This document shows, piece by piece, positions 11,701 to 23,700 of a stretch of 64,000 nucleotides of DNA. This DNA comes from Tubiluchus corallicola. Its lineage: Eukaryota > Animalia > Priapulida. The translations under genes and the position numbers were made by a program. The stretch covers positions 186,001 to 250,000 of the forward strand of contig JAQGDQ010000188.1 in the NCBI GenBank assembly GCA_030141605.1. Reading direction: 5' to 3'. Below the pieces are notes generated by a model that saw only the letters and a program-made list of their open reading frames with translations, had not been told where the DNA came from and made no database searches. The first letter of the stretch is position 1, and each line of letters opens with the position of its first letter.

Positions 11701-14700
11701 GGTTTGAACGTTAATTTAAATGCGTACAATTTCATTAAAACATGCAAGTACAAATCAAACACGTGCTAAGACAGGGTTTACACATATAAAAAGTTTCAAA
11801 ACTACAAACATGCAAAACTATTACACATTTAAGATTTTAAGCATGGCTAACTTACAGGACCGATTCGCTGGATGATAACATCACGAATATCTAACCAGCC
11901 CTTGAATGAAAGTACTTCAAACAATGCCAGCATGGCACTACCGAGTGTGTCAAAGTTAAAATTTTCTGGGTTAGCCCTGGATTCCATGCAGCATTAGTAA
12001 CAAGAATTATGCATTAATAACAAAGCAATAATTCTGATGGTACCAATTAGAATTTATAGTTGTGTATAGTGTTTTTATATAAAATCTATTAACATTCTTA
12101 AAAATTCAGACTGCACTTAATAAAAAATTGCTGAGGGTTATCTGTACAAAGGATATAATATGACAAAAAAACCAACATTCTACTTAGATATTATTTAGCC
12201 ATATTTTGTTATCCACAAACACTAAAATGCCAAAGCAACAGTGTTTTATTTTATTTTCATCCTTCTGCATGCCAGGACTTACTGGATTAACTTCTAGTAT
12301 AGCATCACGAATATCCAGCCAGCCCTCTAGTGACAATATCTCAAACAAACCTAACATGGCTGATTCGATACTATCAAAGTTGAAGTTACGGGGATTAGCC
12401 CTGCAGAATTTATATTGAAACATTACATTAAAAGTTTTCATGGATACAACCACAGTACAGTTACAAAACAAAACTAAAGTCATACAGATTGCAGTCAGGA
12501 ATAATCAGACATTTAGAATGAAAAAACACGTTGTTTATGTTGCCATTATACAGCAAATTTTCTGATAATACTTTGTTGAACTGAATTTAACAAATATAAG
12601 ATATTTTTTGGTGATTCATTATCTTTTTATTATCAGTTAGTATTTATCTATCAATCTGCTTTCATCACATTGCTGTCAATCTGTGTTTTTTCTACTACTG
12701 TTTGTCTACAATTCTTGAGCTGTAAATTTTTATACTGTTCCTAGCTTACTAATTAAGTAATGATAAAAAAGGCACAAGTGCAATTATATATTATAGAAAG
12801 TATGTTGCCATATACACAGTAACTAGCAGTGACTCACCATATTCGAGGGACCATCATCATTGGCACTGTTTCGTTGGCTTTTGGCTTAAGATATTTTGCC
12901 ACGAAAACCTCACGCATAAAGACACCAACACAGTCTTCCTACAAAACAATCATATACAGTAAACTTGAGTAATTCATATTTAATGTATTAATGTGCTGTA
13001 GCCAGTAAAAATATGATGAGAACATTGCACTATAAAGCTCTACTTGACTTATTTTGAGTTAAATTACATGGAAACTTTGCAGGTTAATCATGCCTTGTAT
13101 ATTTACTTCAGTATTATATGCATTATTATTCTAATACTGCATAGTACTTTGCTTATTATGTTATTGGTATGTGCAAATCATACCTTTTTAGTGATACTGA
13201 GATCATTGCATCTTGCCAGCTTGAGCCCAAGCAATTGTACTCCATAGCTGGCAAACACAAACATGAGCACTATAAGTAATACTGATACCTGAAATGATAA
13301 AACAATCAGCGTGAAAGAAAATAATTATGCTTTCATACAGATGTGAGCAATGCTTGAGTAAGAAATTTGAAAGCTAGATACAAATAATACTTGTGTAATA
13401 ACTAGTAATAATAATACACATAAGCAATACCCAAAGAAATTAAAACACAAAAATATAATTCACTCAAGTGCTGTAAACCCGTTGACTAGAAAGTGTAATA
13501 TTGCTTCTTTCAAAACACACATGTTTGGAACTGGGTGCTATGTTTGGCCAAACATGGGAAATCAACTGAAAATTACATTACATCCACATCTACAAGCTCA
13601 CTTAAAAAAGGCATTGCGTTTCTAAGCTTCACGCTAAGAAAATAGCTCTTTTCATACTTATTGCCATCATGTTCATAACAATTTTCAAGATTATAGCTCT
13701 TTTGTTTACTTCAAAATAGAACTTTAACTTTATTTAATTAATAGATGTAGCAAGAGGAAAGCATACTGACCAGTAAGATTTCCTTGAATCCGCGGCACAA
13801 CACGTAAACAACATTTCGCATGTGCGGAACAAGAATGAAAATACGGATTGGTCGAAGACATCTCAGAATCATCAAGAATTGAGCGCCAGAATTAGGACGA
13901 ACTGTAGTTGGCATCCAGCATGCAAAAATTAAGCTTATCTGCAATAAAAAGAAATTGAATAAATTTTAGGCATGCAATGTGCCTGTGTTCACTTTTAATA
14001 GAAAAACTAGAAGACAGATCATAAAGTAAAGTGAAATATATTGCCAACTTACAAAATAAATGAAGATGTCTAAGATTCCACCAATATCATTCACGACAGC
14101 ATTTGGTGTAAACAGCAGTCCATTAGCCAAGACCTTTATTGCCATCTCAAAGCTCATGAAGATAACAAAAATGTACTCACACACCTGAAATGAAAGGGTA
14201 TTTGTGTTAATGACAGGGCAGAGTGAAAACTTGGGCACAAAAGTTCTCTGATGTCAAAGTCACGCAAGGAAATACAAAATGAATAAATCTCACACAATGT
14301 TAAACTGCAATATACTTCTTGCTTATTACACTCAAACGTAATCAAATACTAGGGAAAGCATCTAATATTTTTCAAGTAATTGGAAAAAGACACCATAGTA
14401 TCAATCAAGTGAAGACAATTTAAATAATTAACAATGAAGCACCTTCAATTATGATACTCAATATACAGACAAAATCCAGATCTGCTTTTATCAATTTGCC
14501 TGCATATGTTTAACTTTAAAGAGACAGTTTTTCCTAAATTAAATATGTAAAATACCTGTAGTTTTCCGTTGTCCATGACACGATAGTGAGGTGTTTCAAA
14601 CATCATTGATATACATGACATAATGGTAACAACTATTGCTGCCCAGTCAAGATAAGTCACCAAACCTATCAGTTTACTTTGAAAAATGGAATAAAAATAA

Positions 14701-20700: not shown

Positions 20701-23700
20701 GCGCTTAAAAACTAGTCTATAATGGACTATATGAGGTAAATGATATAAAATGGGCAAACTAAAAAAAATTCAGGCATATGTACAAACTACAAAAAAGATT
20801 CAACTTTTTCTGGGAACAGTGTACTAACTACAAAAAAAATATATTTCTGGGCATAGAATGATTTGCAGTTGTATGCATGATTCAAAACAAACAAAATTCA
20901 GCATCTTAAAAACACATTTTATATAGATAGAGCTCACAAACACTCTTCATTCATTTCATATAAGACTGGTTTTGTATGGTGAACATGTTACAGTGAGTGA
21001 TCAAACACAGCATTGGACTACATATGCAGCCAGCCCCAGTATCTGATTACCATTGTTGCGAATAAGTGGTACAAGGTAAAAACCAGCTCAACAATGATGT
21101 ATGGTGCTGTAGGACCGATGGAAGTAGCCACATCATCTTTAACTTCGACCCAACCTTCCTGGGTCAATATTTGGAACATTCCCATGAATACCTGCATGAA
21201 TGGTGTTAGATTCATAGGATAATTATGCAATTCAAGAATGATATAAAGCTCTGAAAGAAGCAAAGGTGCCACAAACAAATACACAGTTGCTCTGTAGTCT
21301 GCGATGAATACTCTACACACACAAGAAAAACTAATGTTAACTGCAGCTCTTTTACAAAATATGTTAAACCAGAAAAAACTTCCTTTAAATTTAAGTTGAA
21401 ATATAAAATAGTCGTTGCAGATTAATATGTAATGGCATCATATAACACGAAAATATAAGAGATAAAGGTTAATAAAAAGAAAATGAAAGTGGTAGTATCT
21501 ATAATTTTTTTCTTTCCATTAAACAGTGAATTAAACACATGGAGAAACTGTGCCACCACATACACATACACTTCATCTCCATAAAAGGCCCTGAAAAAAG
21601 GATGAAAAAAATATTCGTGATCACACTATTAGTAATAGGTAGAAATATGTACCAACACCAAGCATGCAATGTCTAAGTGCATGTAATAACTTTTTACTTA
21701 ACCTAAATCAATCACTACACTGCCAGAACATAATACATAAGCAAAAATGTTAACCAACAATCATAAAGTGAAATAGTCAATCAGCAAGATACAATGATAA
21801 CAAAAACAAGGTTGGTGTGTTAGCTTACCAATGTAATGAACATGTGATATAGGATGAAATAAATAGCAACCAGTGGTGCCACACCTTCTCCAATCTTCAC
21901 CATGGTGTCATTCATAATTTCTATCCAACCTTCTTGGGTCAAGATTTGAAACATAGACATGAGAGCCTACATTGAACATGCAACGACACGGGTTAGTACT
22001 AATTCTAAATCTTGTCAATGAAAAATTACAATTTTGTAGCAACCACAAGCAAGAACTTTAAATTCATCCTTTAACCAGTTGCTAACACTAGCAATTAGTA
22101 CTAATTTCATTTTAGGCAAACAAAAAATGACTAATTAATAAAAAAATGGTATTAGTAAAACTACCACTAATATCACAGTAACACGAGATTATTCATATCA
22201 GCAAGTGTTAAAGTTTAAATGGTTCAACTCAACAGACAGGGAAGAATTAATGACAGAGTTAATAAACTGCAATGGATGCTAGTCACTCACCCCACAAGGA
22301 CATAACTCATATAGATGAAAATGACAAGAAATTTTTTATTGCAAATGGCTACAAAAAGGTGAATAAGTGCCAAAAAACTTTTCATTTTTTCAAACAGTAC
22401 ATATAGTGTATGTAAAAACACGGTATTACATACTGCCCACTAACAATAACACTTTCATATGGATGTTCCCATTTACAAAAACGTAGCAATACATGTAAAA
22501 ACCTGCTAGTCGATACTATCAACTGTTCATGAAATTAACGTACAAAATGTTTTAATAAGGTAACAGTTCATACCTCAGGGAATGTATCGAACTTTTTCAA
22601 GTCAGAAACGTAACAGAACAGCTGTAGGGATATAGATGATGTAATGATCAGCAAAGCCATAGTGAAAATAATTAAACTACCCAGCTTTTTACCAGGACCA
22701 AAGATCTTGTAGACGAATTCCTCTAACATAGGAGATGCCTTAATGAGTCTCACAACTCGCAATACCTACCAGTATAACAATTATGAGTTGAAAGACTGAA
22801 GAAAAGTAGTAGTACTTTCCAATAAAGGCAAAAATCAATTGTCACAAATATGCATTGATACATGTCGATTATGCTTTTGATTGTTACGTATTATTTACAT
22901 CAAATCTATAGCTGGTGTTTGCTATCTGTGGAAAATTGTAAAAATTCTAATTGTACTACTGAACATTGGCATTTTATACAGAAAATAACAATTATAAATA
23001 TAAAATGAAAATTTCAAATAATCAAATACCAACTTTAAAAATTTTGTAAATGAGTACGTAAGATGAACAATTCCAATTTAAAGACAAGTTTAAGTAACAC
23101 TACGAAAAGTAAAATACAACAAGTTAGGTGCAAAGTGTTAGAAATTTCAACCTGAAAATATGTCAGCTGTGAATGGTAAAGTCCAGGTAAAATATTGAAA
23201 GTTGTGCCAATAGCCAGTAAGAGTTCAAACTTGTGAAGAGATCGACGGAAGTAACCACGGAAACCTAGACACCAGATCTTAAACAATGCCTCCAAATTGA
23301 ACAATATCGTGAAACCAACCTAAGTAACAATAATCACAAACAAATTGTGTGTGTGTACTAAATACTAAACATTTAGAAATAAACTTGAAGAACACTTAAC
23401 TAACACATTCACACTGAATACATATTCATCAAAATATTACCGTAAATTTTCAACAATGAAAATATTATAACATGTCAGTGTGCTCACCTCTGCATAATAA
23501 AATTTCTTTGTAAAGTATGCCCTGTCTTTTCCATTGTGTTCAAAACGAATGCTGCCTGCAGTTAATGCATTAGCCAGCACAAGGAACAGCATTATAATAT
23601 GGAAAACAGAAGACTGGAGGATACGCTGCAACATATTACAAAAATAATTCAAGAAATTATATTTTGAAAAATAGAATTGTTATTTCAATTACTTCAATAC

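Follow-up and report, generated by a model that had tools for sequence, protein, structure and literature searches.

The window analysed here, a 64,000-nucleotide stretch of DNA from the priapulid Tubiluchus corallicola (assembly GCA_030141605.1, contig JAQGDQ010000188.1, forward-strand positions 186,001 to 250,000), contains a gene for the four-domain channel NALCN in which two pore exons have been duplicated in tandem, with three copies for the pore of Domain II (DII) and two for that of Domain III (DIII). We consider it probable that each cluster is spliced either/or, the DIII pair switching the selectivity filter and the DII cluster tuning leak size and gating. That two pore-exon clusters lie within one gene, as a sequence-only reading of the window had proposed, is supported by the exon anatomy and by a gene model that is open throughout.

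The NALCN gene spans positions 5762–29659 of the minus strand, on which all exons described below also lie, and was mapped by tblastn with Priapulus caudatus and millipede NALCN as 36 exons per isoform from DI S1 to the stop codon; the N-terminal exon or exons fall outside the map. Its best PDB match is NALCN, and the filter ring of the four-domain channel fits the pattern E-(E/K/D)-(E/K)-E. Alternative exons are named in transcription order, with numbering after Senatore et al. (2013). The DII cluster is preceded by the constitutive exon 14 (22574–22765, DII S4-S5) and followed by the constitutive exon 16 (18725–18799, second half of DII S6). Between them lie the canonical exon 15-1 (21829–21966, 138 nt), exon 15-2 (21051–21191, 141 nt) and exon 15-3 (19959–20135, 177 nt), all in phase 0, all with the filter QEGW, and spanning the equivalent of human NALCN residues 543–588, from the P1 helix to upper S6. 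The DIII cluster lies between the constitutive exons 30 (12838–12938) and 32 (11138–11236, DIII S6; 100% identical to P. caudatus over 33 aa) and consists of exon 31a (12283–12400, 118 nt, filter LEGW, giving EEEE) and exon 31b (11856–11976, 121 nt, filter FKGW, giving EEKE), both 3n+1 in length. The earlier reading had placed these five pore exons correctly, and each is preceded by AG, followed by GT and free of stop codons. It had also reported single DI and DIV pore exons, and a six-frame motif scan returned one DI filter (QEGW, position 25112, exon 25008–25150) and one DIV filter (GEDW, position 9034, exon 9002–9244). When the window was searched with a profile of 32 exon-15 peptides, all taken from other animals and none from the window itself, three DII copies and no more were recovered (97, 49 and 23 bits), and nothing like an additional, decayed copy reached 8 bits. 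In the 36-exon model, all six single-choice combinations are open to the stop codon (1720–1734 aa). Inclusion of both DIII exons or of neither shifts the frame and leads to a premature stop, whereas inclusion of two DII exons or of none keeps it.

The filter charge differs in the DIII pair, since 31a carries E and 31b carries K, and switching between them would convert an EEKE filter (sodium leak) into an EEEE filter, predicted to be calcium-binding or calcium-permeant. In the DII cluster, the comparison of the exons bears out the earlier claim that the glutamate is kept while the P2 helix, the outer loop and the first half of S6 change; the three copies are predicted to tune the channel through the P2 helix, the outer loop and upper S6. 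From this we infer that DIII choice sets filter charge and DII choice tunes gating or leak size. Exons 15-1 (83% identical to its P. caudatus counterpart) and 31b are the strongly conserved copies, and the default channel would for this reason be 15-1 + 31b. We regard the DIII pair as very probably functional and exon 15-2 as likely to be used, with exon 15-3 a shade less certain; an effect of the DII copies on gating or current size is somewhat favoured, and it is rather doubtful that all six exon combinations are made.

Evidence for the DIII pair comes from a second priapulid and from splicing. Exon 14 is 95% identical to P. caudatus NALCN (XP_014674294, here P0004) and at most 86% identical to the other 119 matches listed of 704, and the first 1000 residues of the model are 79% identical to P0004 (875 columns), the next proteins compared reaching 58–59%. 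P0004 holds both the E and the K DIII exon, wrongly joined via read-through sequence. The K exon 31b is 95% identical between the two priapulids, whereas the E exons 31a have only 21 of 36 residues in common (read by eye), indicating fast divergence. Three sequencing runs were informative: X6, a spliced run of a diverged relative; X5, a diverged DNA run; and X1, a DNA run that is perhaps the window's own source. At least 10 GT-AG joints across the NALCN gene are among those listed for X6, and exon 16 is joined onwards in this run (18725 to 17816). The junction from exon 30 to 31b with 31a skipped (12838 to 11976), one of those that the sequence-only reading had named as a check, is present in one X6 contig at depth 39. 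Conserved animal sequence was filtered from the X6 contigs; exon 14, the three DII copies and 31a are uncovered, so that the run is uninformative on these exons either way.

A 31a/31b switch (EEEE/EEKE) was described in myriapods and chelicerates by Senatore et al. 2013 (PMC3557258). The priapulid pair matches it in having tandem DIII exons with E upstream and K downstream, the same span and the same splice boundaries, and 31b has the F-K doublet of arthropod K exons. It differs in that the pair, seen in the window and in P. caudatus, lies outside Arthropoda and, in the window, alongside a DII cluster. By its layout, then, the known exon-31 switch appears to reach priapulids and not arthropods only; Appendix S1 of PMC3557258 lists 31 genomes, no priapulid among them. 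The same E-then-K layout also occurs in a metagenome locus (L020).

A priapulid source changes the evolutionary picture for exon 31. In trees of this exon, the K exons of arthropods, priapulids and a nematode fall on one side of a branch with support of 94/85, which drops to 71/34 once the E/K column is left out; the approximately unbiased (AU) test does not reject a duplication confined to priapulids (p 0.08 and 0.14). Among 76 distinct DIII units, F or Y precedes K in 43 of 45 K units, nematomorph included (the exceptions are Ciona and a vertebrate-type sequence), and L precedes E in all 31 E units. The branch support and the residue before K together lean, short of proof, towards a single origin of the K exon, in the ecdysozoan ancestor, and the exon-31 switch itself probably reaches back that far. 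The text and Figure 4 legend of Senatore et al. place the pair in the arthropod ancestor and allow an independent K in nematodes, although the legend of Figure 3 speaks of the ecdysozoan lineage (PMC3557258).

In the DII cluster, all three copies retain the equivalents of human E554 and D558, the Trp, the acid at filter+4 and His583, and S6 is hydrophobic in each (KD19 2.4–2.6). Loss of E554/D558 in human NALCN reduces divalent block, according to PMC7182417. Exons 15-2 and 15-3 share a Lys at filter+6 that is otherwise found in a single unit, a crinoid 15a, among 190 distinct DII units (a pattern-extracted and arthropod-rich set). With residues counted backwards from the end of the exon, human Y578 is replaced by Val in 15-2, which also has Glu at 576, and human Y578, F579 and Y582 are replaced by Phe, Leu and Val in 15-3; in the 190 units, Tyr578 is present in 179, Phe579 in 186 and Tyr582 in 172. 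The human variant Y578S is reported to give higher current density and slower inactivation, that is, a gain of function (PMC6692409). The outer loop of 15-3 is extended by 13 residues with the gain of an N-M-S sequon, an extension that fits as tolerated because DII outer loops are described as making no contact with the FAM155/NALF1 subunit (PMC10120453). Exon 15-2 was also considered as a converted DIII exon on account of its K at filter+6 and its IGP spacing; this idea was set aside in view of its far better match to human DII (36.9 bits) than to DIII (14.4 bits).

The extra DII copies look selected. DNA likeness among the three copies is only 50–59%, with synonymous sites saturated or nearly so: the proportions of synonymous (pS) and nonsynonymous (pN) differences are 0.75–0.97 versus 0.21–0.29 over P1, filter and P2, and 0.72–0.87 versus 0.32–0.42 over the whole exon. 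In simulations of neutral decay under eight settings, no more than 3 of 20,000 runs kept the frame, the splice sites and the MFQ-QEGW-E motif jointly, which argues that the intact copies are not a product of chance. The run from the diverged relative X5 covers the first part of exon 15-2 and 170 of the 177 nt of 15-3, where the differences are a single V>L replacement and two synonymous substitutions, of which one falls in the codon of the filter Glu; there are no indels. The adjoining intron has 13 substitutions and two indels in 190 nt (one-sided Fisher p 0.013 against the exon), and none of the listed differences falls within the 44 nt before the 15-3 acceptor. Disabling mutations in relatives had been put forward as a check on the extra exons; for 15-3, in a single shallow X5 contig, the frame is intact and constrained relative to the intron. 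Together, the saturated synonymous sites, the intact filter motif and the constraint on 15-3 give good support to past purifying selection on the extra copies.

The sequence-only reading, which had spoken of both clusters, needs correction in one respect: the DII cluster is not the published exon-15 E/K switch. A switch between exons 15a and 15b (EEEE/EKEE) is described in flatworms, molluscs, annelids, echinoderms and hemichordates in PMC3557258, where, as the reading had said, exon-15 and exon-31 duplications stand as separate solutions of different lineages. The window resembles that switch in having tandem phase-0 copies of the same exon (human 543–588), one conserved and the others fast-evolving, but it has three copies and none with K at the filter. 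Moreover, in the other DII pairs compared (Lineus, Biomphalaria, Antedon and the metagenome loci L034, L037, L039 and L048) a diverged acidic copy lies upstream and a conserved K copy downstream, whereas in the window the conserved copy is the upstream one. The cluster is better termed an E-only DII triplication, judging from its exons. Two side observations concern such pairs. An upstream DII exon with D at the filter occurs in Patella caerulea (P0274, QDGW) and at L034:10306 (NDGW), giving EDEE/EKEE pairs, and in clusters of both kinds the K exon is conserved and the E alternative fast-evolving, in molluscs, a nemertean, a tick and the priapulids.

A conserved copy in the upstream place is compatible with a new duplication and also with an old 15b whose K was lost after 31b had come to provide one. 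The exon-15 tree (35 rows, 46 columns, long branches; without Tegillarca, one Patella, Paralvinella, deuterostome and non-bilaterian rows) cannot separate three origins, with AU p values of 0.35 for grouping with spiralian 15a, 0.43 for a priapulid-only origin and 0.50 for grouping with spiralian 15b. An unlikely further reading is that priapulids alone kept both ancient duplications, the bilaterian 15a/15b pair and a 31a/31b pair dating from the ecdysozoan ancestor, and that a former 15b lost its K and was reduplicated into gate-tuning exons, leaving selectivity and leak size to be set on two independent splicing axes, with six channels. The DIII lysine would then have let the former 15b drop its own, avoiding a two-lysine filter, and the DII exons would differ at those S6 positions where human disease variants cause a gain of function. 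Senatore et al. (PMC3557258) remark that K occurs at both the DII and the DIII position in no NALCN.

Under the preferred reading of two either/or clusters, the choice of a single copy would be made differently in the two domains. DIII exclusivity would be enforced by the reading frame, since inclusion of both exons or of neither introduces a premature stop; in DII, where the frame is kept, exclusivity needs other means and would rest on weak acceptors and RNA pairing. All five alternative acceptors are poor in T (0.25–0.42), the 33 constitutive ones averaging 0.60 (p 3e-4). A branch-point-like motif lies 19–31 nt upstream in three of the five, and that of exon 15-3 has none in 60 nt. The introns of the DII cluster measure 607–1159 nt, a length at which steric exclusion by itself would not be expected to work, except with branch points a long way upstream. 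A helix is predicted between an exonic arm inside 15-1 (21873–21892, minus strand) and a GC-rich intronic arm (21540–21559, minus strand), at −30.5 kcal/mol (z −5.6, family-wise p 0.012; 18 segment pairs, 250 shuffles), and it is present in both the minimum-energy and the centroid fold. The stretch 21545–21579 can instead pair with 19272–19306, behind 15-3, a weaker alternative with a family-wise p of 0.16. The helix with the body of 15-1 was the only one of the 18 segment pairs to pass the family-wise test, which five other candidate pairings in the DII cluster failed (p 0.16–0.64). As a lead only, pairing of the intronic element with the body of exon 15-1 could mask and silence that exon, and pairing downstream could loop out 15-2 and 15-3. 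Two intronic X6 contigs were seen inside the DII cluster, at 18792–18917 and 20395–20547, with depths of 26 and 24 compared with 39–47 at nearby spliced joints; intron retention, slow splicing within the cluster and DNA in the run are all possible sources.

Docking-site/selector control of mutually exclusive exons operates in Dscam1 and 14-3-3. The DII cluster resembles these systems in that an element within an intron, close to three alternative exons, is predicted to pair with either of two partners. It differs from them in that just one pairing passes the family-wise test, and the partner in it is the body of an exon.

Several observations weigh against a DII cluster in current use as a tuner. 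Saturated pS is a sign of past selection and silent on present use. The constraint on 15-3 is read from one X5 contig of low, error-prone depth (4.8), and three of its 19 differences, near the ends, are unlisted. Exon 15-3 is highly divergent, with an end branch of 2.9 and the loss of conserved aromatics. The search for orthologues of 15-2 and 15-3 was negative: of 146 pore segments, taken from new proteins within the top 150 of 251 profile matches, not one lies nearer to either exon than to 15-1 (one ties), and a word-based search with exon 15-3, weak by design, gave five candidates and no matches. The P. caudatus model P0004 shows the canonical DII exon only, being a predicted protein whose introns were unread. 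V or F at position 578 need not behave as S does, and the total folding energy of the region around the predicted helix is ordinary (z −0.97). On the DIII side, the ion selectivity of EEEE-type NALCN is described as uncharacterised (10.1101/2025.04.04.647097).

Some of these observations would also be expected if the additional DII exons, and 15-3 in particular, had a function in the past but fell silent not long ago, leaving the DIII pair as the sole live switch. The near-invariant residues missing from 15-3, its acceptor without a branch-point-like motif and the failure to find orthologues all point this way. However, frames and splice sites are intact in both 15-2 and 15-3, neutral decay quickly destroys such exons in simulation, and in X5 exon 15-3 is constrained and the 44 nt before its acceptor show no listed difference; we therefore consider recent silencing improbable. 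Similarly improbable, if by a hair more so, is that the extra exons serve a channel that does not conduct or acts as a sensor, their inclusion being a regulated means of switching the channel off and not of tuning it. Large S6 changes (Glu576 in 15-2; F578, L579 and V582 in 15-3) would suit such a channel, in-frame exons would escape nonsense-mediated decay, and a sensor role of NALCN has been proposed (PMC3557258). Against this, none of the three copies has lost the filter, the Trp, the acid at filter+4 or His583, as expected for a working pore.

It is more improbable still that the DII copies are not strictly either/or and that two are often joined in one mRNA, giving a doubled pore segment. 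Co-inclusion keeps the frame, and 14 database proteins from molluscs, a nemertean and a crinoid have both DII exons in tandem. These entries are predicted models, however, and several of the same species also have single-exon isoforms; a doubled P-loop with half an S6 is, on structural grounds, unlikely to fold into a four-domain pore. P0123, P0137–P0140, P0142 and P0301 are among these 14, and P0004 has the DIII exons in tandem; such entries are likely annotation errors at mutually exclusive clusters. An assembly artefact, in which haplotype or paralogue pieces were stitched together, has nothing in its favour and is highly improbable given the 50–59% DNA likeness and saturated synonymous sites of the DII copies, the presence of 15-3 in the diverged run X5, the recurrence of the DIII pair in P. 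caudatus and, more weakly since X1 may be the window's own source, a single X1 contig spanning the whole DII cluster (18877–22336).

The double cluster was absent from 13 multi-isoform species sets, of which seven have two DII forms, one has two DIII forms and none has both. Metagenome searches found 50 loci, none priapulid-like, and among the eight that span both pore regions the DIII pair occurs alone in L020 and the DII pair alone in L034, with no locus having the two together; these are small samples, and annotation misses exons. A double cluster, a triple exon 15 and NALCN splicing in priapulids were not found reported in the literature searched, which did not cover every relevant article. 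New here is the exon-31 layout in a new phylum together with an E-only DII triplication in the same gene; the ingredients are known. A related case is exon 12a/12b of invertebrate Cav3 (PMC4436565), where splicing also alters structure flanking the DII pore and leaves the filter residue unchanged; unlike in the window's NALCN, it is the S5-P1 turret with its cysteines that is swapped and not P2, loop and S6.

Other features were seen in and around the gene. A 93-nt phase-0 exon (27833–27925, minus strand) adds 31 residues to the DI S2-S3 linker, including an RRQS motif that we take to be a protein kinase A-type site. In P. caudatus the insert is conserved at 81% identity, and it is missing from all 73 other proteins measured; its exon could be a cassette exon. 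High-copy repeats occupy NALCN introns at about 18050–18700 and 16230–16380, where summed contig depth in DNA runs reaches thousands and hundreds, respectively. An intronless frame of about 396 aa for an E2F transcription factor (36078–37289, minus strand; Pfam E2F_TDP and E2F_CC-MB), possibly a retrocopy, lies upstream of NALCN, about 6.4 kb from its first mapped exon. On the plus strand, exons of a purine nucleoside phosphorylase-like gene (about 46540–48636, with PNP_UDP_1 on 48244–48633) and an exon for a DnaJ C-terminal domain (62459–62839) were noted.

NALCN is almost always a single, highly conserved gene, and many invertebrates have kept an EEEE pore for reasons yet to be explained. 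If the reading of two either/or clusters is correct, the E-only DII cluster would separate filter charge from remodelling of P2, loop and S6, which are confounded in the molluscan 15a/15b switch. The gene would then offer a natural 3 × 2 test panel, NALCN now being expressible with UNC79, UNC80 and FAM155, and its extra exons would amount to natural substitutions at human Y578, F579 and Y582 in upper DII S6, the first of these being the site of the gain-of-function variant Y578S. For the family as a whole, an exon-31 switch in priapulids would suggest one origin of the sodium-type DIII exon in the ancestor of ecdysozoans, with 31a later lost in nematodes, insects and crustaceans, in contrast to the 2013 proposal of an arthropod origin and an independent gain in nematodes.

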